This document shows positions 16,827 to 51,406 of a stretch of DNA of 64,000 nt, one piece after another (within the stretch, counting starts at the first letter, position 1; every line of letters begins with the position of its first letter). The notes under the pieces are model-generated. The model worked only from the letters and a program-made list of their open reading frames with translations. It was not told where the DNA came from and ran no database searches. Origin of the DNA: Rhodospirillales bacterium (GTDB lineage Bacteria > Pseudomonadota > Alphaproteobacteria > Rhodospirillales > UBA2165); contig JASLNU010000077.1 of NCBI GenBank assembly GCA_030745835.1, forward strand, positions 4,521 to 68,520, given 5' to 3'. Both the position numbers and the translations under genes were made by a program.

Positions 16827-17750
16827 TTAGCCGAGCGCGGCGAACAATTCCTCGCCCAGCTCGGCGCGCGCTTCATCGACGACGGGCTGCACGGCTTGCT
16901 TGAAGGCGGCGCGCTCGGCATCGGTCATGTCCAGGGGCTCGATTCCGGCGGCGCGCAATTGGGCCATCATCTCCGCATCCTCGGCGGCGGCGAAACCGCG
17001 CTGGGCGCTGGTGGCGATCCCGGCGGCCTCTTCCATTGCGGCGCGCATATCGGCGGGCCGGGCATCGAAAATCTGTTTATTGCAAAGCAGCAGCGAGACA
17101 CCGAACAGGTGCCCGGACAGGGTGAAGTACGGGTGGTGCTTGTGGACGCCGAACTGATAGCTGTTGGTCAGCGGGTTTTCCTGGGCGTCGACCTCGCCCG
17201 AGGCCACTGCCGCCGGATAATCGGCGACATCGATAAACACCGGCTCGAACCCCAGCCGGCGGAACGATTTCTGGTGCAGCTCGGAGTTCATGGAACGAAT
17301 TTTGAGGCCCTGGCAATCGGCCGGGCTGCGCAGCGGCCGCGCGTTGTTGGAGAAATGCCGAAAGCCGTTGTCCCAGAAGGCGAGCACGCGAAAACCGGTG
17401 TTTTCGGCGAACCGGGCCTTTAACAGTTCGCCGAGCCCGCCGTCGAGGGCGGCGTAGGCCTTTTCCCGGCTGTCGATCAGGAACGGCAGATCGAAGACGC
17501 CGATTTCCGGCACCCTTCCCGCCAGATAGCTGGAAGCGAAATAGCACATGGTCAGCTGGCCGGTTTCCACCAGATCCAGCAGATCGGCGGCCTTGGCGCC
17601 CGGGGTTTCGGTGATGTTGGCTTCCAGCTGGAACAGAACGCGGGCCCCAAGGCGGGTAACAAGCTCGTTGCCGAATACCTCGGCGCCCCGGGTGTGCACC
17701 GAAGCGTCCCCCTGGTAGCGTCCGAAATTGATGGTGATGGTGGGCATCAA
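16827..17750 (-). CDS. TRAP-transporter DctP-family solute-binding protein homologue lacking a signal peptide (orphan)
   Basis: 307 aa. ...FASSYLAGRVPEIGVFDLPFL...RVLAFWDNGFRHFSN... matches DctP-family binding proteins. The ORF begins MMPTITINFG with an in-frame TAA 6 nt upstream, so no leader peptide is possible. There is no adjacent dctQ or dctM. Confidence 0.8.
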   Translation of the reverse strand: MMPTITINFGRYQGDASVHTRGAEVFGNELVTRLGARVLFQLEANITETPGAKAADLLDLVETGQLTMCYFASSYLAGRVPEIGVFDLPFLIDSREKAYAALDGGLGELLKARFAENTGFRVLAFWDNGFRHFSNNARPLRSPADCQGLKIRSMNSELHQKSFRRLGFEPVFIDVADYPAAVASGEVDAQENPLTNSYQFGVHKHHPYFTLSGHLFGVSLLLCNKQIFDARPADMRAAMEEAAGIATSAQRGFAAAEDAEMMAQLRAAGIEPLDMTDAERAAFKQAVQPVVDEARAELGEELFAALG

Positions 17751-17786
17751 TTATTCCTTATCACTGGCCGGCAAAATTTCCGGATG

Positions 17787-17893
17787 CGACATATTTCGGC
17801 AATTTGAGGCATGGACATCCTGGTCATTTATAGACATTTGTGGACATTCGCGGACATTTCCCAAGGGTTTTCACCACAGAGACGGTGAGACGC
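17787..17893 (+). repeat. Mosaic intergenic element, left module A (GCGACATATTTCG + five 10-bp-phased GGACAT-type boxes)
   Basis: Aligns with 37038-37132. Boxes GGACAT 17813, GGTCAT 17822, AGACAT 17832, GGACAT 17842 and GGACAT 17852 are each followed by a short T-tract. Confidence 0.6.
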
Positions 17894-17900
17894 AAAGGGC

Positions 17901-17972
17901 ACAGCCCCAACGAAAAATTATTGGGGGATGGCATGGCTGGCCACGCGGGCGTCCGGTCGGGCACGGGAACCA
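17901..17972 (+). repeat. Intergenic repeat family, copy 2
   Basis: ACAGCCCC..TGGGGGATGGCATGGCTGGCCACGCGGGCGTCCGGTCGGGCACGGGAAC is the same consensus as copies 1, 3, 5 and 6. Confidence 0.55.
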
Positions 17973-18015
17973 GTATTCTTCTCGCACCGCACCAGATAAT
18001 TTTCTCACCGTCTTT

Positions 18016-18043
18016 CCCCCTCCCCACTCCGAGGGGGAGGGCC
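18016..18043. repeat. G/C hairpin (CCCTCCCC-loop-GGGGAGGG), REP-like
   Basis: 8-bp stem 18018-18025 / 18034-18041 with an 8-nt loop. A similar hairpin, CTTCCCCC..GGGGGAAG, lies at about 18394-18423. Confidence 0.5.
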
Positions 18044-18251
18044 GGGGTGGGGGGGCAAAACCCAGCATCGCGCCAAGACCGACGCCCGCCTGGCCAACCA
18101 TTCCACGCCTAAGCGGGCTGCATCGATTTCCCACCATACCGGATCACCATCATTCCTACCGTTTCATACCTATTTATACCGCTCCAACGGGTCAAGCCCG
18201 CCGCGCCAGCGCACCGCATATTCTTGAAGTAAATGAAGAAGGTTGAGTATA

Positions 18252-18266
18252 GAACAAAAAAGGAAC
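18252..18266 (+). promoter_or_regulatory. GAAC-N7-GAAC motif (form of the alphaproteobacterial LexA/SOS operator)
   Basis: Exact GAACaaaaaagGAAC. It sits in a 35-nt block (GTATAGAACA...GAACAA.TGCAAG.AAA) that is conserved at 37226-37260. Confidence 0.35.
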
Positions 18267-18288
18267 AATTGCAAGGAAATATGATAGA

Positions 18289-18344
18289 AGCAGCCCGGCT
18301 GGGGATGGCCGGGTCGGCCAGCCGGGCGTGAGGTACACTCGGAA
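18289..18344 (+). repeat. Intergenic repeat family, copy 3 (left bracket of the low-GC cassette)
   Basis: AGCAGCCCGGCTGGGGATGGCCGGGTCGGCCAGCCGGGCGTGAGGTACACTCGGAA. The reverse complement of 20435-20519 shares both ends (AGCAGCCCG ... ACTCGGAA). Confidence 0.6.
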
Positions 18345-18630
18345 ATATATTATGCAGGTGTAATACAAAACCTCCTCATTGCTTGTGGCGCCCCCATCCC
18401 GGCCTTCCCCCATGGCGGGGGGAAGCGCTATTTCGTGACAACGGTACACACATTTCACGGTTATTAGCCCTCTATTAGTATACTGTACCTAAAATAGCAT
18501 TCGCTCCTAATCAAGGGTGGCCACCATAGCAAGATTACGTTGCCGTATGACGTGAGAAGGTAGGTGAAAAAATTCAGTTCCAGATTATTTTTGAAAAATC
18601 AATTCCTACCGCCAAAGGGAAATCGTTCAA

Positions 18631-19497
18631 ATGCAATTCAACGACCTTTTAGAGAACCAGAGTATCGACCCGGAAACCGTTCTGGTGTTACGCCACCGTC
18701 CGTCCGAGCCGAAGCTGCGGGAAGTGTTTCCTTGGCTGGCGGCCGAGCGTCCAGAACTTTTTAACGCCTATCAACGCATTCAAACTCTTAAAGTGGAAAA
18801 ATCCATGATGAGGGCGAGTTACGTTGCTTCTTTCATCGGGCACGAGTCGGGGAAAGGACTGTTCGTTGGATTGTATCGAAGGGGCCGTTGGCGCCCGTTG
18901 AGCTATGAAGCGTATTGGAGAATGCGCTCCAGCAAGGATTTACGAAAATTTGGGCACGGCGGATTTGCAGGCGAGCGGGAGGCAATTCAATGGTTTAATC
19001 TACGCTTAACGGATTGCTACTCGGATTGGAAAGGACGGCTCGTCGTCAACTGGCCTCCGCCGGAACGTTCATGGTGGCGTTGGGCGGGCCGAAATCAATT
19101 CGCGGTTCATGCAATCCACGAAGAAAGCTTACTCGATCCACCGATGCCGGAGTGGGACAAACTGGATCTGACTTGGAACCAATTGGATGTTCTGCCCTCG
19201 AACCTCCAAGCGGCTCTTCGTCAATGGCGCGGTATCTATTACATCTTCGATGAAGAAAATAAAAAGGGATACGTGGGGGCTGCCTTTGGCCAAGACAATA
19301 TTTTGGGAAGGTGGCTTAACTATGCGAAATCCGGTCACGGCGGAAATAAAAAGCTTCGCAAGCGTGATCCGAGTAAGTTTCGTTTTACGATCCTACAGCG
19401 CGTATCTCCAGACATGGAATCCCAGGATGTCCAAAGACTTGAAGCATCATGGAAGGACCGTCTCCATACCAGAGAGTTTGGTATGAACGAGAACTGA
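18631..19497 (+). CDS. GIY-YIG nuclease-domain protein with an uncharacterised ~190-aa N-terminal domain
   Basis: 288 aa. The C-terminal GIYYIFDEENKKGYVGAAFGQDNILGRWLNY...FRFTILQ...RLEASWKDRLHT...MNEN supplies GIY, Y(V)G, Arg, Glu and Asn of the GIY-YIG core. GC content is lower than the flanks. AAGGGA lies 11 nt upstream of the ATG. Confidence 0.8.
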   Translation: MQFNDLLENQSIDPETVLVLRHRPSEPKLREVFPWLAAERPELFNAYQRIQTLKVEKSMMRASYVASFIGHESGKGLFVGLYRRGRWRPLSYEAYWRMRSSKDLRKFGHGGFAGEREAIQWFNLRLTDCYSDWKGRLVVNWPPPERSWWRWAGRNQFAVHAIHEESLLDPPMPEWDKLDLTWNQLDVLPSNLQAALRQWRGIYYIFDEENKKGYVGAAFGQDNILGRWLNYAKSGHGGNKKLRKRDPSKFRFTILQRVSPDMESQDVQRLEASWKDRLHTREFGMNEN

Positions 19498-19548
19498 TTA
19501 TCAAGTTTCTGGAATTCTTTTTCCTTTGACAATCATTGGAGGGTAGGA

Positions 19549-20106
19549 ATGGATTGGGACCGATTTGATAAAGCCCTATTTCGTTGCCTAAACGACATAG
19601 AGATTGTGAAAGCGCAGAGAACGGCGCACCAGGTGTTAAGGAAAACGGTTTCTAATTCGCGTGATGTTCGCTCTGGTTTTCCAGGTCTTGTAAATGCAGC
19701 ATTTAGTTTTTCGACTCAAGGGGTATTAGCTTTAATTTTGGAAAAACAAACTACGAAGGGACGGTCTGGATTTTGGTGGGTTCACCGTGAAGCGTTAAAT
19801 CACGTTTCCGGATATTCACCTGAACAGGAAGATATCGACTTTCTCAATGAATTTTCCTCAGCGATTAAGGTGTTAAGAGATAAATCCTTGTTTCACATTA
19901 GTGAAATTACGCTCCACGACCCGAAGACATTTCGGCAAAATACCGGTCTTACCTACAGAAAGATGGACAAAGCGATTTCAGTTTCGTTGGCCACGATGCG
20001 TGAAATTTTGAAACTTCGCCGTGGCTCAACCACCTGGAGTTCTGGAACTCTTGATGTAGCCACACTCCATTATGATGGCTCGGACATCCCAAGCATTTTT
20101 GACTAA
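19549..20106 (+). CDS. Hypothetical protein with an R-x5-H (HEPN-like) motif
   Basis: 185 aa and AT-rich, with GGAGGG 7 nt upstream of the ATG, lying 51 nt downstream of the GIY-YIG gene. The motif LRDKSLFH (R110...H116) resembles the R[ND]xxxxH HEPN signature. I recognise no other family features. Confidence 0.5.
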   Translation: MDWDRFDKALFRCLNDIEIVKAQRTAHQVLRKTVSNSRDVRSGFPGLVNAAFSFSTQGVLALILEKQTTKGRSGFWWVHREALNHVSGYSPEQEDIDFLNEFSSAIKVLRDKSLFHISEITLHDPKTFRQNTGLTYRKMDKAISVSLATMREILKLRRGSTTWSSGTLDVATLHYDGSDIPSIFD

Positions 20107-20298
20107 ATAGTCTTAGATTTATATTCGATTAGAACGTTGTATATATTTCATTTCGAGCTTGAAAATTGTTAGGTTTAAGAAGGAGTGGAGATACTGACAG
20201 AGTGGAAAGATGTCAGATAACTTGAGCCCCGAAATTGATGGTCAAAAGCGATATAAAATTCTTTTAGAGCACTATAGATGGGAACAATCGTCCTTTTA

Positions 20299-20327
20299 GA
20301 GCATAGGGGTCATGAGCATAGGGGTCA
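20299..20327. repeat. Tandem direct repeat GAGCATAGGGGTCA x2 (15-bp period)
   Basis: Copies at 20299-20312 and 20314-20327. CTTTTAGAGCA also occurs twice (20261, 20293). Confidence 0.5.
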
Positions 20328-20434
20328 GGTCTTGAATCGTGAATTTGCCTTCCTCCACGCTTCGACAATCTTGCTGCCGGAACGTGCCTTATTAACGCTG
20401 TGAGTTGTCAAGTCCGATCCCCGCATGAACTGAG

Positions 20435-20519
20435 TTCCGAGTCTAGCCGGACGGCCAATCGGCCAACCATGCCATCCCCGATTGGCCTGCTCCCGTGGGC
20501 CAACCCCATGCGGGCTGCT
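20435..20519 (-). repeat. Intergenic repeat family, copy 4 (long form, inverted; right bracket of the low-GC cassette)
   Basis: The reverse complement reads AGCAGCCCGCATGGGGTTGGCCCACGGGAGCAGGCCAATCGGGGATGGCATGGTTGGCCGATTGGCCGTCCGGCTAGACTCGGAA. It is near-identical to 38599-38687 and abuts or overlaps the glcB stop codon. Confidence 0.6.
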
Positions 20520-22692
20520 ACCCTGCTGCCGCCTTGGCCTCCCGCCGCCTTGCGTGCAGGATCGGTTCGGTGTAGCCGTTGGGCTGCTGCAAGCCCTTGA
20601 ACACCAGATCGGTGGCCGCCTGGAAGCCGACCGAGGCGCCGAAATCGGGGGCCATGGGACGGTAACCCGGATCGCCGGAATTCTGCCGGTCGACGACGGC
20701 GGCCATGCGCTGCATGGTCTCGGTCACCTGATCTTCGGTGCAAATGCCATGATGCAGCCAGTTGGCGATATGCTGGCTGGAGATACGTAAGGTGGCGCGG
20801 TCTTCCATCAGGCCGACATCGTTGATATCGGGCACCTTGGAACAGCCGACGCCCTGTTCGACCCAGCGGATGACGTAACCCAAAATGCCCTGCGCGTTGT
20901 TGTCCAATTCTTCCTGGATTTCCTGCTCCGACAGATTGGCGCCGCCCAAAAGCGGGATGGTCAGGATATCGTCGATATCGGCGCGCGGCCGATCCATCAA
21001 TTCATCCTGGCGCGCGGCGACGTCAACCTGGTGGTAGTGGATGGCGTGCAGGGTCGCCGCCGTCGGCGACGGCACCCAGGCGGTGTTGGCGCCGGCCATC
21101 GGGTGGCCTTGCTTGGCGTCCATCATCTGCTTCATTTCATCGGGCATCGCCCACATGCCCTTGCCGATCTGGGCGACCCCCTTGAAACCGGTCTCCAACC
21201 CGACATCGACGTTCCAATCTTCGTAAGCCGCGATCCAGGGTTCGCCCTTGATGACGTTTTTGCGCAGGAACGAACCGGCCTCCATGCTGGTATGGATTTC
21301 ATCGCCGGTGCGGTCGAGGAAACCGGTATTGATGAAGACCACGCGCTCGGCGACGGCACGCACGCATTCCTTGAGGTTGAGCGTGGTCCGCCGTTCCTCG
21401 TCCATGATGCCGATCTTCATGGTGTTCGGTTGAAGCCCCAGCGCCGTTTCGACGCGGCCGAAGATTTCCGCCGTGAAGGCGGCTTCCTCGGGGCCGTGCA
21501 TCTTGGGCTTGACCACATAGATGCTGCCCGAGCGGCTGTTCCGGTATTTGCCGCCGGCTTTCAGATCGTGGATGCAGATCAGGCCGGTCAGCATGGCGTC
21601 GAGCATGCCTTCCGGCACCTCGCCGCCGCCACTGGTCTCGACCGCGTCGGTATACATGTGGTGCCCGACATTGCGGATCAGAAGCAAACTGCGGCCAGGC
21701 AGGGTAAGGCCGCCGCCATCCGGCGCCGTGTATTCCCGGTCCGCTTCCAGGCGGCGGGTCATCATGGCGCCGCCTTTCTCGAAGCTATCCTCGAGATCGC
21801 CTTTCATCAGGCCGAGGAGGTTGCCATAGGCGAGCGCCTTGTCCTCGGCATCGACCGCCGAGATCGAATCCTCGAGATCCTGGATGGTGGTGATCGCCGC
21901 CTCGAGCGCGATATCCTTGACGCCGGCGGCGTGGTCCTTGCCGATCGCGTCGGTAGCATCGATCTGAATTTCGATGTGCAGGCCGTGATGGCGGAGAAGG
22001 ATCGCCGACGGCGCGCCCGCATCGCCAACATGGCCGGCGAACTGGTCCGCCGCCGCGAGCCCGGTTTCGCCGCCGCCGCCGAGGCTTACCGACAAGGCGC
22101 CGCCAACCACCGCGTAGCCGGCGGCGTCCCGGTGGCTGCCCTGGGCCAAGGGCACGGCCTGATCGAGAAAATCGGCGGCGAATTCGATCACACGGGCGCC
22201 GCGCACCGGGTTGTAGGCGCCGGCCCTTTCCGCGCCGCCGTCTTCGGAAATCACGTCGGTGCCGTAAAGGGCGTCATAAAGGCTGCCCCACCTGGCGTTG
22301 GCGGCGTTGAGGGCGAAACGGGCATTGGTCACCGGCACCACCAGCTGCGCCCCGGCGATGCTGGCGATTTCGGCATCGACATTCGCTGTCGTTACCTTGA
22401 AATCGCCGCCCTCGGGCAACAGATAGCCGATATCGGCGAGGAATTGCTTGTAGGCGGCGGCGTCATGGGGCTGGCCCCTGCGCTCCTGGTGCCAGGCATC
22501 GATCTTAGCTTGCAGATCGTCGCGTTTGTCCATCAGCGCCTTGTTTTTCGGCGCCAGATCGCCGACCATCTCTTCGAACGATGCCCAAAACGCATCCGCG
22601 TCGATGCCGGTGCCCGGCGCGATATCATCGGCGACCAGATCGGCGAGATTTTTGGCGATGGAAAGGCCGCCCTTTTGCACCCGTTCGGTCAT
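20518..22692 (-). CDS. glcB: Malate synthase G
   Basis: 724 aa. The N-terminus [36 protein letters not shown] and overall collinearity with GlcB support the call. Confidence 0.95.
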
Positions 22693-45941: not shown

Positions 45942-46146
45942 CTTAAATTCTCCCCGCTAACATCTTCCTTGATCGGATCAGTTCAGAGTCCAATTGGGTC
46001 AACCTCAGCCACCAAGTTCCTTAAAAGGAACGCCATTCGGCTCCAAAAGAGAACGCTATTCTCTTTTAGGCATCTTTGTCAATCACTTGCCGTAAAAAAA
46101 TCTAGATTTTTGTCATCAACCGGTTATTGGAGGTGAAATTCGGAAC

Positions 46147-46190
46147 GGCCGGCGGAATATTTCTTGGCAAATTAGAAATTTCCGCCGGCC
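46147..46190 (-). terminator. Stem-loop GGCCGGCGGAA-(22 nt)-TTCCGCCGGCC downstream of the ABC binding-protein gene
   Basis: 11-bp GC-rich stem, 28 nt after the stop at 46218. The U-tract is weak. Confidence 0.35.
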
Positions 46191-46217
46191 AGCCGAATTC
46201 AACAACCGGATGCGCCG

Positions 46218-47147
46218 CTATTTTTTCCGTTTAGGCGGCAGATATTTCGCGGCATTTCCCTTGGTCGCGATGATGTGCTTGATGAAGACTTTCTGTTCAT
46301 GCTTCTTGCCGGAAAGCCAGTCGTTCATGATATTGACGCCCAATTTGCCCCAAACCATCGGGCTGACGACAACCGTCATATCGATGCTGCCTTTGATCAC
46401 CGCCTTGAGCGCCGGCGGCACACCATTGAGGCCGGTGATGATGACATTGGCTTTCTTGCCGGCGGTCGCAACCGCCTGACCGGCGCCCATGGCAATTTCG
46501 TCATTGCCGGCGTAAATAACCCTGACGTCGGGGTGGGCGACCAGAATATCCTCGGCCTGATTGAGGCCGCGCTCGCGGGTCAGGGCACCGGTTTGCTCAT
46601 AGACGATCTTCATGCCCGACTGTTTGCCCATGCTTTCTTTGAATCCGTCCGCCAGATCCTTGAACACATTGGCGCCCGCCGGGCCTGAAATCATCGCGAT
46701 TTTACCTTTGCCGCCCGCCTTACCGGCGGCCCATTGGCCGATGTCGCGGCCAATCAGTTTTGAATCCATGGCGACAAACAGTGTCTGATATTTGGATTTT
46801 GAACCGCGCGCGATGGAAATGATCGGGATCCCGGCATCATGGGCTGATTTATAGGCGGCGCCGGTGGCGATCGCATCAATCGGCGAGATCAGGATACCGT
46901 CAACTTTTTGGGCGACCAGATCCATGACACCGTTGACCTGCTTGTTGACATCTTCGTTGGCGGTAACGACACGGATTTTCCAGCCCAATTTCCTGGCCTG
47001 AATTTCGATGCCTTTGCGCATCACGATATAAAAGGGATTGGTGTCCGACGCCAAGGCGACGCCAATCGTTTTACCGGCGGCTTGCACCGCGGGCGAAGCC
47101 GCCAAAATGGCGGCCAGGCCGATAATCAGAGCCAATAATTTCTTCAT
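46218..47147 (-). CDS. Sugar ABC transporter periplasmic binding protein (RbsB-like)
   Basis: 309 aa with signal peptide MKKLLALIIGLAAILAASPAVQAA and a type I PBP pattern (KTIGVALASDTNPFY...). Confidence 0.85.
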   Translation of the reverse strand: MKKLLALIIGLAAILAASPAVQAAGKTIGVALASDTNPFYIVMRKGIEIQARKLGWKIRVVTANEDVNKQVNGVMDLVAQKVDGILISPIDAIATGAAYKSAHDAGIPIISIARGSKSKYQTLFVAMDSKLIGRDIGQWAAGKAGGKGKIAMISGPAGANVFKDLADGFKESMGKQSGMKIVYEQTGALTRERGLNQAEDILVAHPDVRVIYAGNDEIAMGAGQAVATAGKKANVIITGLNGVPPALKAVIKGSIDMTVVVSPMVWGKLGVNIMNDWLSGKKHEQKVFIKHIIATKGNAAKYLPPKRKK

Positions 47148-47216
47148 GCTAATCCTCCAGTTAAGATTGATGGGTGTTTGGTTCAGGTTGATATAATTCT
47201 TGCTTTGATATCCCGG

Positions 47217-48218
47217 TCAGGTTCGCCTGGATTTGATCTGGTCGGCGGCGGCGGCGGCGATAATCACCAGCCCGACGGCAACGCGTTGCCAATAGGAGTG
47301 CACGTTCAACAGGTTCAAGCCGTTTGCCAACACCATCATAATGAACACGCCGATCATACTCTTGTAAAGTTTACCGACCCCGCCATGCAGGGCGGCGCCG
47401 CCGAGGACGACGGCGGCAATCGACGTCAGTTCGTAAAATTCGCCGGCGGTCGGTTGGCCGGACTGTAGGCGCGAGGCCAGCATGACCCCGGCGACGCCGC
47501 CAAGGACGCCACACCAGACGTAAGCCGAGGTCACAACCCGCTTTACCTGAATACCGGCCAGGAATGCCGCCTCGGTGTTGCCGCCGGTGGCAAACAAGCG
47601 CCGCCCATAGGCCGTAAAATGCAACAACCAGTTAAATATGATGAACAAAATAACCGGCACCCAGATCAAGTAATGAATGCCGAGAAAACGGCCGCTGCCG
47701 AGTTCGAGGAAAATTTCCGGCAACCCATCCTCGCCGACGATCGGGCGGCCGTCGGTAATCAGCAACACGACACCGCGCACAATGACCATCGTCCCTAGCG
47801 TCGCGATAAAGGTATTCACCTTCAAATGCGATACAATGATGCCGTTGACGTAGCCAACCGCGGCGCCCGCCGCGATCCCGGCGGCGATCCCCAGCGGAAC
47901 ATTGGTTTCCAGCATAACCCAGGCGGAAACGCAGCCCGATAGCGCCACAATAGATCCAACCGACAGATCAAAACCGCCGGAAATTATGACGTATGTCATC
48001 CCCATCGCGACGATGGCCATCACCGACGCCTGCAAAAGAATATTGGAAAGGTTGACCGGCGATAAAAACCGATCGGAGAGCAGCGCCGTCCCCAAACAAA
48101 GCACAACCAGCGCCATCAACGGCATTTGGTCCAGAACCGAGACCAGCGTAAACCGTTTTTCGCCGGCTTCGAGCGCGACCGGCGCGGCCACGCTTTGATT
48201 TTCGCTACCGTTCGTCAT
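47217..48218 (-). CDS. Sugar ABC transporter permease (RbsC/AraH-like)
   Basis: 333 aa, multi-TM, with the motif ...GGFDLSVGS.... Confidence 0.85.
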   Translation of the reverse strand: MTNGSENQSVAAPVALEAGEKRFTLVSVLDQMPLMALVVLCLGTALLSDRFLSPVNLSNILLQASVMAIVAMGMTYVIISGGFDLSVGSIVALSGCVSAWVMLETNVPLGIAAGIAAGAAVGYVNGIIVSHLKVNTFIATLGTMVIVRGVVLLITDGRPIVGEDGLPEIFLELGSGRFLGIHYLIWVPVILFIIFNWLLHFTAYGRRLFATGGNTEAAFLAGIQVKRVVTSAYVWCGVLGGVAGVMLASRLQSGQPTAGEFYELTSIAAVVLGGAALHGGVGKLYKSMIGVFIMMVLANGLNLLNVHSYWQRVAVGLVIIAAAAADQIKSRRT

Positions 48219-49687
48219 CCGCCCAAAGCTTCCCTCAGATAACCTTCACTATATTCGCCTGATTCTCGGGACATACGGGCGACGATATCACCTTGCCGCA
48301 TGGCCAGGATATTATCACTCATATTGATAACCTCTACCATTTCAGAAGAAGCAAACAGCACACCGCCGCCTTGTTCGGTGAAATCTCTCATTAGCCTGTG
48401 GATGCGTGCCTTGGCGCCGACATCAATGCCGTCGGTCGGTTTATCGAGCAACAACACCTTGGGATTTCCCATCAGCCAGCGGGCAAAAATCACTTTCTGC
48501 TGATTACCGCCGGAAAGAAAACGAACCAATTTTTTCGGATCACGCGGCCGGATATCCAAAGTCTCCATCAGATCGTCGACGACATTGTTGATCCTTTTCA
48601 TGTCGAGCCGCCAGCCGTTCGATACCTCTGAAAGATGGGGCAAAACGATATTGTCGCGCACGCTTAAATCATACATCAGCGCTTTTCGCCGCTCGCCCGG
48701 CACCATTCCAATACCGTTATTAATGGCATCTTTCGGTTTTCTGAGGTTCAAATTATTGCCGGCAATGGTCAACGAGGTGGCGCTATCGCCGGCGCCGAAA
48801 AGCTTCTGCAAATATTCGGGCGTGCCGCTGCCAAGCAGCCCGGCCAATCCCAGCACTTCGCCACGGCGCAAGTTAAGCTCGCCATCATATTCAATAAGCG
48901 GATCGCCGAACTCTAGTTTATGGGGGTGATGCAATTCCTGCAGATCGCGGCCGGTCATCAAGCGGATAATATTTTCCTTCTCGATTTCACCGCGTATCGA
49001 GACATCAACGACTTTCCCGTCCCGCAATGTCGTGCAGCGGTCGGAAAGTTCGACGACTTCCTCGAGCCTGTGCGACACATAGATAATGCCGACCTTCTGC
49101 TCTTTAAGCGAATGAATGATTTCGAACAACCGCTCCGCTTCCCGGTGTTCAAGCGAAGCCGTCGGTTCGTCGAGGATCAGTATCCTGGCCTGATACAGAA
49201 GCGCCTTGGCGATAACCACCAACTGCCGTTCGGCGAAAGGCAACCTATTCACGGAAATATCGAGCGGGCCATGGTAGTTCAATCTTTTCAACGCTTCACC
49301 CGCCCGCTCCCGCATGCGGCGGCGGTCGAGCGCCGGAATAAAACCCAACCATCTTGTTGACGGTATTTCCCCGAGCGTAACGTTTTCAGCTACCGTCGCA
49401 TCGGGAACCAATTGCATTTCCTGAGGGATAATAACGATACCGGCATTCAGGGCTTCTCTCGGATCGGTTATTTCCGATGGCGCGCCATCAATGATTATTT
49501 CACCGGAATCCTTTTTATAAATTCCTCCCAGAATTCTAATAAGGGTCGATTTGCCGGCGCCGTTTTCACCGACCAGCGTGTGCACTTCGCCCGCCGCCAG
49601 ATCAAACGAAACCTTATTCAGCGCCTGGGTGCCGTAAAACTGCTTGGATATTTCGCGGACGGCCAACAGGTCCGTGTTATCAGCCAA
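48215..49687 (-). CDS. Sugar ABC transporter ATP-binding protein (duplicated ATPase, RbsA-like)
   Basis: 490 aa: Walker A GENGAGKST, signature LSGGNQQK, and two NBD halves. Its stop overlaps the permease start. Confidence 0.9.
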   Translation of the reverse strand: MADNTDLLAVREISKQFYGTQALNKVSFDLAAGEVHTLVGENGAGKSTLIRILGGIYKKDSGEIIIDGAPSEITDPREALNAGIVIIPQEMQLVPDATVAENVTLGEIPSTRWLGFIPALDRRRMRERAGEALKRLNYHGPLDISVNRLPFAERQLVVIAKALLYQARILILDEPTASLEHREAERLFEIIHSLKEQKVGIIYVSHRLEEVVELSDRCTTLRDGKVVDVSIRGEIEKENIIRLMTGRDLQELHHPHKLEFGDPLIEYDGELNLRRGEVLGLAGLLGSGTPEYLQKLFGAGDSATSLTIAGNNLNLRKPKDAINNGIGMVPGERRKALMYDLSVRDNIVLPHLSEVSNGWRLDMKRINNVVDDLMETLDIRPRDPKKLVRFLSGGNQQKVIFARWLMGNPKVLLLDKPTDGIDVGAKARIHRLMRDFTEQGGGVLFASSEMVEVINMSDNILAMRQGDIVARMSRESGEYSEGYLREALGG

Positions 49688-49745
49688 TCTCCCGTCTCCC
49701 TCGTCTTCGATAAGGTTATATTTTTTGTTAGACCTTGATCAATAA

Positions 49746-49758
49746 AGAATAGTATTCT
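49746..49758. promoter_or_regulatory. Palindrome AGAATA-G-TATTCT in the divergent promoter region (candidate TetR operator)
   Basis: Perfect 6-bp arms between the ABC operon (start 49687, minus strand) and the tetR-family gene (start 49830, plus strand). Confidence 0.3.
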
Positions 49759-49829
49759 CTAATAAGAAACAAAGAGTCAACCGGTAGATTCCGTTCGGCT
49801 CAGACAATTATAATACGATTAGGTAGCAG

Positions 49830-50426
49830 ATGGCCCAGGTTAAAAAGACATCGGTGCGCGACGCCATTTTGGAAAGTGCGACGGAACTTTTCACCGAACA
49901 CGGTTATTCCAATACGACACTCGCCGATATCGCCCGCGACGCCGCCATCACCATGTCAAATATATACAACTACTACGACTCGAAGCTCGATGTTTTGTAC
50001 GCCATTTACGAACCCTGGCTGGACCAACGGATCGAATATGTGGCGCAGGAAACAGATAAAATCGAAGACCCTAGGGAAAAAATGCGTTTTCTGTTGAAGT
50101 ATTTGTTCAGCGATCTGCCCGCCGACACCAATTGTTTCGCCAACAACTTCATGCAAGCCATCGTCACCCGGAAATCGGAAGAGAATTACTCTCGCGATCT
50201 GCTTCTGCGGTCCGAGGAAAAAATATCCGGGATCATTCGAAAAGCAGTGCCGGATACGGTCAAGGACGCCCTCGCCGATAACATTTTGACCCACCTCCTG
50301 TTTATGGCCCATGACGGTTTTGTCATCAATTACGCCCTCAACGGGCCGTCGCGCCGGGTCGACGCCATTGTCGATCTGCTTTGCAATCTGATTTTCAGTT
50401 CGGCCGCCGCCGATACTTCCTCTTGA
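49830..50426 (+). CDS. TetR/AcrR-family transcriptional regulator
   Basis: 198 aa with the N-terminal HTH ...FTEHGYSNTTLADIARDAAITMSNIYNYY. Confidence 0.85.
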   Translation: MAQVKKTSVRDAILESATELFTEHGYSNTTLADIARDAAITMSNIYNYYDSKLDVLYAIYEPWLDQRIEYVAQETDKIEDPREKMRFLLKYLFSDLPADTNCFANNFMQAIVTRKSEENYSRDLLLRSEEKISGIIRKAVPDTVKDALADNILTHLLFMAHDGFVINYALNGPSRRVDAIVDLLCNLIFSSAAADTSS

Positions 50427-50437
50427 CGGGAATTGCC

Positions 50438-51406
50438 ATGGCACGGAAGGAACCTTTCCAGCCGAACCCCGAACAATTGAAACTGGCGCCCGATATTAGC
50501 GGCCGGGAAATCAACGGCGTCGGTGAAAGCGGGCGAAGACGGCCAACCCGCATTTATTGGCACGACCCGGACACCATCGCCCACGGCAAGATGCAGCTTT
50601 GGTTTTATTCGCAAAACAACAGCGCGCGCGCCGCCGAAGCCCGGCGCATCGCTTATCAAATCGACGCCCTGCCGTTGCCCGATATCGCCGGCAAAAAAGA
50701 ACAGGCGCCGGCCGGAGAATGGACCGCCAAGGTGAAGGAGCTGGCGCTCCGGGCGAGCGCCGAATCGGTGGGCATCGCCAGAATGCGGCCCGAGTGGCTG
50801 TTCGAGGGAAGCGACCTCGACTACCGCTGGATCATCATCGTCGCCATGAAGATGGACTTCGACAACCTGGCCCAGGCGCCGAGCGTCACCACTTCCGTCG
50901 AAACCATGGCCCAATATAGCCGGGGCGCGAAGATCGCCAAAACGGTCGCCGGCTGGATCAGGGAGCGGGGCTGGGACGCCCACCCGCATTGCGGTCCGGC
51001 ATCGGGACCGGTGTTGCTGATCCCGGCGGCCATCGAAGCCGGCATCGGTCAGCTTGGCAAACACGGCTCGATGATCAGCCGGCAACACGGCTCCAACTTC
51101 CGCCTGGCCGGGATCATGACCGATCTTCCGCTGATCGCCGATGAGCCGGCCGACTTCGGTTCCGACGATTTTTGCCAGAGCTGCAAAATCTGCATCGACG
51201 CCTGTCCGCCGCTGGCGATCGGCAATGAAAAGCAAATGGTCCGGGGCGATCGAAAATGGTATACCGACTTCGACAGGTGCGTTTACTATTTCAACGAAAA
51301 TATGAGCTGTGCCATCTGCCTCGCGGTCTGCCCCTGGAGCAAACCCGGCGCCGCCCCGAAACTGGCCGAAAAAATGCTGCGCAGAAGGCAAAAGGCGGGC
51401 GCCTGA
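50438..51406 (+). CDS. 4Fe-4S dicluster protein of the epoxyqueuosine reductase (QueG)/reductive dehalogenase superfamily
   Basis: Core AGIGQLGKHGSMISRQHGSNFRLAGIMTDLPL, then CQSCKICIDACP and C-x10-CAICLAVCP. I chose the ATG at 50438 (MARKEP...), 12 nt after the tetR stop. Confidence 0.65.
   Translation: MARKEPFQPNPEQLKLAPDISGREINGVGESGRRRPTRIYWHDPDTIAHGKMQLWFYSQNNSARAAEARRIAYQIDALPLPDIAGKKEQAPAGEWTAKVKELALRASAESVGIARMRPEWLFEGSDLDYRWIIIVAMKMDFDNLAQAPSVTTSVETMAQYSRGAKIAKTVAGWIRERGWDAHPHCGPASGPVLLIPAAIEAGIGQLGKHGSMISRQHGSNFRLAGIMTDLPLIADEPADFGSDDFCQSCKICIDACPPLAIGNEKQMVRGDRKWYTDFDRCVYYFNENMSCAICLAVCPWSKPGAAPKLAEKMLRRRQKAGA

Follow-up and report, generated by a model that had tools for sequence, protein, structure and literature searches.

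The tryptophan-rich N-terminal domain of the Uzume defense protein UzuA: a putative target-recognition module joined to a GIY-YIG nuclease

Background

A 64,000-nucleotide stretch of DNA from a Rhodospirillales bacterium (NCBI GenBank assembly GCA_030745835.1, contig JASLNU010000077.1; the whole stretch is hereinafter called the window) contains an open reading frame that encodes a GIY-YIG nuclease preceded by a long region rich in tryptophan and arginine. An initial reading of this locus, made from the nucleotide sequence alone (the sequence-only reading), assigned the region to no domain and proposed that it was the specificity or sensor determinant of a cassette. The locus raises the question of what this region is, what it might recognize, and whether it acts with partners. 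The features of the gene are the following.

18631-19497, forward strand: uzuA ORF, 288 amino acids
18631..19125, forward strand: core of the UzuA N-terminal domain, residues 1 to ~165; basic, Trp-rich, alpha/beta; putative reader of DNA or of a modified base
18691-18702, within the N-terminal domain core: RHRP motif
18763-18774, within the N-terminal domain core: NAYQ motif
19051-19083: WPPPERSWWRW block, residues W141-W151
19126..19227, forward strand: UzuA-specific connector, residues 166-199, joining the putative reader to the nuclease
19228..19497, forward strand: GIY-YIG nuclease domain, residues 200-288 plus the stop codon

Both peptides quoted in the sequence-only reading are found in the ORF 18631-19497.

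Results and discussion

The protein is a member of the UzuA family

The entire protein matches the PADLOC model of UzuA, PDLC03973, with an E-value of 9e-78 (259.6 bits; residues 1-288 aligned with positions 3-278 of the 278-position profile), and a second UzuA model, PDLC03974, matches residues 99-288 with an E-value of 3.7e-39. By these matches, the ORF at 18631-19497 encodes a member of the known UzuA (Uzume) family rather than an orphan protein. The protein conforms to Uzume in the full-length profile match, the single gene, the C-terminal location of the GIY-YIG domain and the lack of a conserved partner, and shows no difference in kind, being a marine Rhodospirillales member of the family. 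Uzume is reportedly an anti-phage system, described by Millman et al. in 2022, in which UzuA is the single protein. The name Uzume is absent from the bioRxiv version of the original Uzume paper. In a survey preprint (10.1101/2024.10.26.620412), Uzume is listed as a single-gene defense system with a GIY-YIG domain, and a 2026 review lists its mechanism as unknown (PMC12926258). Our literature search found no paper that describes the N-terminal domain of UzuA or any mechanism of this protein. The original impression that no known domain could be named here was therefore half right: as far as these comparisons go, neither Pfam nor the PDB has a name for the N-terminal domain itself, yet the protein family as a whole is already catalogued.

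The family is large and widely scattered. A word-indexed protein search yielded 2,152 proteins at E<=1e-3, the best 120 of which are all full-length and 58-70% identical to the query; with the N-terminal domain alone, the search yielded 644 representative clusters at the same threshold, that is, at least 644 clusters defined at 50% identity. Homologs with 52-64% identity are patchily distributed across phyla, including Alphaproteobacteria, Acidobacteriota, Planctomycetota, Chloroflexota, Cyanobacteria and Spirochaetota, among others. UzuA homologs are often located on plasmids and in variable regions: 420 plasmid records contain homologs, those of Bacillus thuringiensis among them, and the N-terminal domain is carried by 18 plasmids, 12 of which are conjugative. 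Since the proteins encoded by the B. thuringiensis plasmids, with only ~26% identity, align over residues 3-288, the N-terminal domain appears to belong to the UzuA family as a whole. Proteins of ~170-180 amino acids that seemed to consist of the N-terminal domain alone were considered as a separate architecture and rejected, given that P0152 and P0272, the two examined, turned out to be uzuA genes with a frameshift.

The uzuA gene resides in a small insertion and has no conserved partner

The uzuA gene is located in a segment of low GC content, with the DctP start at one edge and the malate synthase G stop at the other.

16827-17750, reverse strand: DctP gene
17751..20517: low-GC segment with uzuA and ORF2, 2.77 kb, GC 0.34-0.55 compared with ~0.62
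17924..17974, forward strand: REP-like element, left copy; GC-rich, dispersed
19549..20106, forward strand: ORF2, 185 amino acids, a rare uncharacterized protein on the same insertion, downstream of uzuA
20429..20479, reverse strand: REP-like element, right inverted copy, flanking the insertion
20518-22692, reverse strand: malate synthase G gene

In the two closest relatives with available flanks (L094 and L095; 75% identity in DctP and 83% in malate synthase), only 32 bp separate the malate synthase G gene from the DctP gene, and neither uzuA nor ORF2 is present, so the 2.77-kb segment is an insertion. Two copies of the REP-like element, of which there are six in the window against 0.07 expected, bracket the insertion as an imperfect inverted repeat. 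Rfam and tRNA scans of the insertion were empty apart from one sub-threshold Rfam match, and a scan for promoters and terminators detected no more of these than in shuffled sequence. Identical contigs, labelled Rhodospirillales, come from marine metagenomes and metagenome-assembled genomes, including TARA samples. By all appearances, then, the uzuA segment is a small, horizontally acquired defense insertion in the chromosome of a marine member of the Rhodospirillales.

The notion of a cassette did not hold up. The only other gene of the insertion, ORF2, matches no family in Pfam, PADLOC, NCBIfam or PHROGs; none of 80 other genomes has it next to uzuA, and the only five homologs that were found lie apart from uzuA, so we rejected it as a partner, immunity or cassette gene. 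Nor is any other neighbor conserved. Among 290 proteins encoded next to uzuA, the largest recurrent cluster consists of 3 proteins, all from related Acidobacteriota (Pyrinomonadaceae, Blastocatellia), and among the 150 nearest neighbors, each Pfam family is represented in at most 4. The N6_Mtase family occurs in 2 of these 150, in both cases as a type I HsdM, and no methyltransferase was detected in the insertion of the window by inspection of ORFs and Pfam searches. UzuA is a single-gene system that lacks a conserved methyltransferase or any other conserved partner.

Domain architecture of UzuA

The C-terminal part of UzuA is, as first read, a GIY-YIG nuclease. Pfam PF01541 matches residues 201-280 (E = 1.9e-5; 25.3 bits compared with a cut-off of 22.6), and a Foldseek comparison aligns the C-terminal domain with the I-TevI catalytic domain (1ln0, 1mk0) with a TM-score of 0.79 and an rmsd of 1.8-2.0 A. 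Alignment with I-TevI using hhalign gave an E-value of 3e-5 and superimposed the catalytic positions, such that Y203, Y214, R227, H236, E271 and N286 correspond to Y6, Y17, R27, H40, E75 and N90 of I-TevI. Five of these residues, Y203, Y214, R227, E271 and N286, are invariant in the 120 homologs, and H236 is conserved in at least 90%. The GIY and YIG motifs, the conserved Arg, Glu and Asn residues, and the alpha/beta fold of the GIY-YIG superfamily are present. With the active-site residues Y203, Y214, R227, Y231, H236, E271 and N286 intact and the catalytic residues invariant, UzuA is expected to possess an active nuclease.

The 200 residues that precede the nuclease in the sequence-only reading do constitute a distinct N-terminal region, but not a single domain: the domain core extends from residue 1 to ~165 and is followed by a connector of residues 166-199. 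In the fusions to HNH, NOV_C and McrB modules that are discussed below, the N-terminal domain ends at about residue 160-165, and the comparison of architectures showed that the connector is missing from the fusions to other effectors. In the full-length AlphaFold2 model (pLDDT 93.4, pTM 0.86), the connector forms short helices at 182-186 and 190-198, and its residues S166, L168, M172, P173, W175, W182, L185, P189 and W199 are conserved in the GIY-YIG-type members only.

The unusual composition that first drew attention to this region was borne out by the counts. Residues 1-200 contain 12 tryptophans (6.0%, compared with 1.0% in the long ORFs of the window) and 10.5% arginine (compared with 7.2%), and the N-terminal domain is basic, with a pI of 9.5-9.8 (9.5 for residues 1-200). 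At ten of the 12 tryptophan positions, 87% or more of the 120 homologs have kept the residue. Across these 120 full-length sequences (58-70% identity), R21, H22, P24, Q48, F122, W133, W141, W148, R150 and N155 are invariant, and in a set of 100 diverse sequences, R21, H22, P24, Y47, Q48, Q51, F68, F78, G80, F122, W141, W148 and R150 are conserved in at least 90%. The conserved stretches include RHRP, NAYQQ and WPPPERSWWRW. The last of these, which includes the invariant W141, W148 and R150, is conserved in close as well as diverse homologs and so is a core element rather than a linker. The domain is predicted to fold autonomously with high confidence (pLDDT 95.1 and pTM 0.90 for the AlphaFold2 model of the domain alone), adopting an alpha/beta structure with strands at 17-22, 64-70, 75-91, 118-126, 137-140, 149-151 and 158-162. 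The N-terminal domain proved to be neither a housekeeping domain nor a poorly conserved linker.

The assertion that the N-terminal region falls outside the known domain families was upheld by each of the sequence searches. No Pfam domain was assigned to residues 1-200; NCBIfam and PHROGs match only the C-terminal part of the protein; and, among the family libraries (Pfam, NCBIfam, PHROGs, PADLOC), nothing but the UzuA models was detected for the N-terminal domain. Pfam scans of 100 diverse members revealed no consistent family in this domain, and ASCH, EVE, SRA and YTH are absent among the Pfam matches listed (25 of 55 families; 100 members, E<=1). In the same Pfam scan, DUF4123 matches 3 of the 100 diverse members. 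Searches of the PDB with the single sequence and with a profile of the N-terminal domain yielded matches at chance level only. The hhalign comparison of the N-terminal domain profile with E. coli YqfB, an ASCH protein, gave a probability of 0.15%; with a single sequence and not an ASCH family profile as the target, this is a weak test.

Structural comparison gave a slightly different impression. When the model of the domain alone was compared with the PDB using Foldseek, 9 of the 10 top matches were ASCH proteins (ZmASCH, AF2351), with the ASCH structure 3s9x at rank 13 and, among the lower matches, Lon-N, the PUA-like domain of PAPSS ATP-sulfurylase, CRBN, the SRA domain of SUVH6, and MspJI. 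All these scores are weak and below significance, with E-values of 0.04-3.5 and TM-scores of 0.2-0.43. In the viral library BFVD, Foldseek likewise retrieved ASCH, DUF3850 and ASC-1 proteins, also weakly (E of 0.08-3). The modeled fold of the N-terminal domain thus bears, at best, a marginal likeness to the ASCH/PUA-like readers.

The N-terminal domain is fused to other effectors

Among the best 150 representatives of the N-terminal domain, 53 carry a GIY-YIG tail. In others, the same domain is followed by a different C-terminal module: HNH_2 in 9, HNH in 8, NOV_C in 3 (three cluster representatives; NOV_C is PF13020, formerly DUF3883, a PD-(D/E)xK nuclease), and AAA_5 in 1. The AAA_5 case, P0241, is of the McrB type, with the McrB-like AAA+ part beginning directly after the N-terminal domain; it is one truncated protein of 347 amino acids on a 1.5-kb contig. 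An apparent VWA fusion, P0207, was not counted, being a single sequence in which the N-terminal domain is cut at residue 130 and which may be a chimeric assembly. The relevant matches of the partner effectors are the following, where 6yex is a structure that we take to be VcaM4I.

P0241, residues 183-332: E. coli McrB, residues 163-311, E = 9e-52
P0127, residues 192-296: TagI, residues 172-276, and also EcoKMcrA, E = 2e-18
P0182, residues 197-272: 6yex, residues 187-264, E = 2e-4

By these similarities, the closest solved relatives of the partner effectors are modification-dependent restriction proteins, and the UzuA N-terminal domain appears to occupy the N-terminal slot in which these proteins carry their readers. 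The N-terminal segment of E. coli McrB is a DNA-binding domain that reads 5-methylcytosine, and the reader domain of the McrB of Thermococcus gammatolerans is YTH-like; in P0241, the UzuA-type domain is located in the place of the McrB reader domain, before the AAA+ module, although in one truncated example. The HNH partners are direct homologs of the nuclease domains of TagI, EcoKMcrA and 6yex. TagI pairs an SRA domain with HNH, and VcaM4I pairs a PUA-superfamily domain with HNH; the two enzymes depend on modification, prefer DNA with 5mC or 5hmC, and restrict phage T4gt (PMC6765204). The same study screened the fusions of DUF3427 with DUF3883, the McaZI group, as modification-dependent enzymes (PMC6765204). 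The architecture of UzuA thus can be compared with that of the single-chain Type IV enzymes TagI and ScoA3IV (SRA-HNH), VcaM4I and TspA15I (EVE/PUA-HNH), McaZI (DUF3427-DUF3883), and Ahi29725I and Apa233I (winged helix-GIY-YIG). Like these, UzuA combines an N-terminal putative reader of ~150-190 amino acids with a C-terminal nuclease and has no cognate methyltransferase, and its N-terminal domain is shuffled among HNH, PD-(D/E)xK, GIY-YIG and McrB modules; unlike the readers of these enzymes, it has no detectable sequence relationship to the SRA, EVE, ASCH, YTH, DUF3427 or winged-helix domains.

Such shuffling is not without parallel. Modification-dependent restriction enzymes have been described as a modular combination of a sensor with a nuclease (PMC12191111), and the winged-helix readers of 6mA combine with PD-(D/E)XK, HNH, GIY-YIG, PLD and McrB-like NTPase domains, an activity that was predicted from architecture and subsequently confirmed by experiment (PMC11037411). 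However, the swapping of effectors is also known for sensors of proteins and small molecules, so that modularity alone does not prove that the ligand is DNA.

A possible mechanism and its alternatives

Given the fusions in which it takes the reader slot, together with the lack of a conserved methyltransferase or other partner, the N-terminal domain is probably a target-recognition or sensor module. The proposal that the appended domain determines specificity, or acts as the sensor, draws support from the four other effector fusions, from the position of the domain within them, and from its being neither a housekeeping domain nor a poorly conserved linker. More specifically, residues 1 to ~165 would comprise an autonomous nucleic-acid target-recognition module that binds a mark of non-self in double-stranded invading DNA, with a modified base the most likely candidate. 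The residues R21, H22, Y47, Q48, Q51, W141, W148 and R150, along with the basic surface, would be suited to form a pocket for a flipped base. The domain would then tether the C-terminal GIY-YIG nuclease to the invading DNA, which the nuclease would cut nearby, and host DNA would be spared for want of the mark, not through the action of a partner methyltransferase. Under this scheme, UzuA would function as a single-chain Type IV modification-dependent restriction endonuclease. A solitary nuclease without a protective methyltransferase fits the logic of Type IV systems and speaks against a Type II-like enzyme: unlike the Type II GIY-YIG enzymes of the Eco29kI and Hpy188I type, UzuA has no adjacent cognate methyltransferase. 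We infer that the N-terminal domain binds DNA, that its ligand is a modified base, and that cleavage depends on this binding; the complete model, in which the domain reads modified DNA and aims the nuclease in a Type IV-like manner, is one toward which we lean, with modest confidence. A bolder version, that the domain founds a large unnamed family of modified-base readers, either as a derived PUA/ASCH-like barrel or as a new fold, and with a specificity unlike that of the SRA, EVE, YTH and winged-helix domains (for example, for a hypermodified pyrimidine or a 7-deazapurine), can be put forward only tentatively.

The most serious alternative, if an unlikely one, is that the N-terminal domain binds nucleic acid without reading a modification, recognizing instead an unmodified sequence, a DNA structure such as ends, forks, single-stranded DNA or R-loops, or RNA, with the host protected by low expression, compartmentation or activation only upon infection. 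The basic, aromatic-rich character of the domain and its modular association with nucleases would suit such an activity, and neither the sequence and profile searches nor the fold searches matched it significantly to a known reader of modified bases. Nevertheless, the closest characterized relatives of the partner effectors (McrB, TagI/McrA, 6yex) are modification-dependent, and a nuclease directed at unmodified DNA would attack the host where no partner methyltransferase is conserved.

Somewhat less probable still is a scenario in which the N-terminal domain senses a phage protein or a small molecule derived from infection and switches on a non-specific GIY-YIG nuclease, leading to abortive infection. 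Many single-gene defense proteins consist of a sensor and an interchangeable effector, the listing of the Uzume mechanism as unknown (PMC12926258) would accommodate this possibility, and the frameshifted copies of uzuA that recur in some lineages would fit a toxic effector. What is hard to reconcile with such a sensor is that the domain replaces the DNA-binding N-terminal domain in the E. coli type of McrB and takes the position of the SRA or EVE domain in HNH enzymes of the TagI and VcaM4I types; furthermore, its surface is basic and rich in tryptophan and arginine, and Pfam searches revealed no NTPase or oligomerization module of the kind that such sensors typically carry.

That UzuA is a selfish homing endonuclease, or else a repair nuclease with a housekeeping role (similar to UvrC, Cho or SLX1), and uses its N-terminal domain to bind a specific site or damage, is highly improbable. 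In I-TevI and UvrC, the GIY-YIG domain is N-terminal, whereas UzuA has the opposite order of domains and ends with the GIY-YIG domain; it resembles I-TevI in the fold and residues of the catalytic domain, to which I-TevI is the closest match in the Foldseek comparison, but has no NUMOD, zinc-finger or HTH DNA-binding tail. A weak match to the NCBIfam model of group I intron endonucleases (TIGR01453; E = 2.8e-4, 21 bits compared with a cut-off of 56) and the annotation of one plasmid homolog as 'excinuclease ABC subunit C' point in the same direction as the catalytic fold, but they are outweighed by the following: uzuA is a chromosomal gene within an intergenic insertion of low GC content that is missing from relatives, with no intron or intein; no UvrC-specific domain was detected by Pfam or NCBIfam; homologs of 52-64% identity are scattered unevenly over phyla; and the full-length match is to the model of a defense system, UzuA of PADLOC. 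A phage-borne or homing endonuclease was rejected on the counts in phage and viral sequences, the N-terminal domain having no match in 50,697 phage records and relatives being present on only 3 of 2.9 million IMG/VR contigs.

Implications

The preferred reading, that the UzuA N-terminal domain reads modified DNA and directs the GIY-YIG nuclease, is not at odds with what is known of modification-dependent restriction: in enzymes as modular as these, new sensor domains are expected rather than surprising, and more modification sensors are thought to exist (PMC12191111). What the present analysis adds is the recognition that the UzuA N-terminal domain is apparently a mobile part of the restriction-enzyme toolkit, one that sequence comparison traced to neither Pfam nor the PDB. 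Uzume is routinely counted in surveys of defense systems, and the architecture of its N-terminal domain offers a mechanism that can be tested. Should the domain indeed read modified DNA, Uzume, now catalogued as a system of unknown mechanism, would be placed among the Type IV restriction systems, and a further reader would be entered in the architecture-guided catalogue of modification sensors; with its compact size of ~165 amino acids, the domain would also lend itself to engineering or to the detection of DNA modifications. If, moreover, the domain represents a new reader family, Uzume and its HNH, DUF3883 and McrB cousins would add a new branch to Type IV restriction and might provide a new reagent for mapping DNA modifications.

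Lineage-specific insertion between the malate synthase G and DctP genes

Comparison with the empty site in the two closest relatives with flanks, in which malate synthase G and DctP are encoded only 32 bp apart (L094:5968-6001 and L095:5968-6001), shows that the whole 2.77-kb intergenic region that harbors uzuA and ORF2 (17751-20517) is lineage-specific, including the 880-bp non-coding stretch that precedes uzuA. In another relative, with a DctP 78% identical, an isochorismatase gene abuts DctP and malate synthase G is not in between (L093:869-2499), so the DctP junction is variable among the relatives.

Bracketing the insertion is an inverted pair of 51-nt copies, 73% complementary to each other, of a GC-rich REP-like element with the core GGGGATGGCATGGYTGGCC, which is present in six copies in the window, compared with 0.07 expected by chance:

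17924-17974, + strand: copy, one of the bracketing pair
20429-20479, - strand: inverted copy, one of the bracketing pair
2093, 18301, 38536 and 38641: further copies, dispersed in the window

This element could act as a MITE-like carrier or mark a hot spot for insertion.

A second stretch of lower GC content (46000-50500, GC 0.47-0.57) is not a defence island: it encompasses an ordinary operon for a sugar ABC transporter, encoding the periplasmic binding protein, the permease and the ATPase, together with a TetR regulator.

The gene downstream of uzuA

19549-20106, + strand: ORF2, 185 aa

The ORF2 family is very rare, with five proteins (58-65% identity) among the 5.8 billion searched, and has no match in Pfam, PADLOC, NCBIfam or PHROG. 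An arginine and a histidine separated by five residues (R110-x5-H116, within LRDKxLFH) are invariant in this family and resemble the Rx4-6H motif of HEPN domains. The ORF2 homologues are located away from uzuA, one of them adjoining FRG, resolvase and type I HsdM/HsdS genes (L088) and another adjoining a SIR2_2 gene (L089). ORF2 may be an independent defence-island gene. In the AT-rich spacer 3' of ORF2, the 14-mer GAGCATAGGGGTCA is perfectly duplicated in tandem, the copies being 1 nt apart (20299-20327).

Fate of the nuclease half of uzuA

The phage protein family phrog_26160, of unknown function (profile of 278 positions), matches residues 192-288 of the uzuA ORF (19204-19494; profile positions 175-278; E 9e-17). 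The match is confined to the GIY-YIG half; therefore, some phages possess the same nuclease subtype combined with a different N-terminal domain.

In several other genomes, the GIY-YIG part of uzuA is in a different frame from the N-domain:

L175, L176 and L177, 5001-5866: frameshifted uzuA
L085, 6001-6880: frameshifted uzuA

The frameshift is identical in L175-L177 and, being shared by three independent assemblies, is real in this lineage. The frameshifts suggest that the nuclease half of uzuA has been recurrently pseudogenised. Such frameshifted copies give rise to apparent 'stand-alone' N-domain proteins (~170-180 aa) in the databases.
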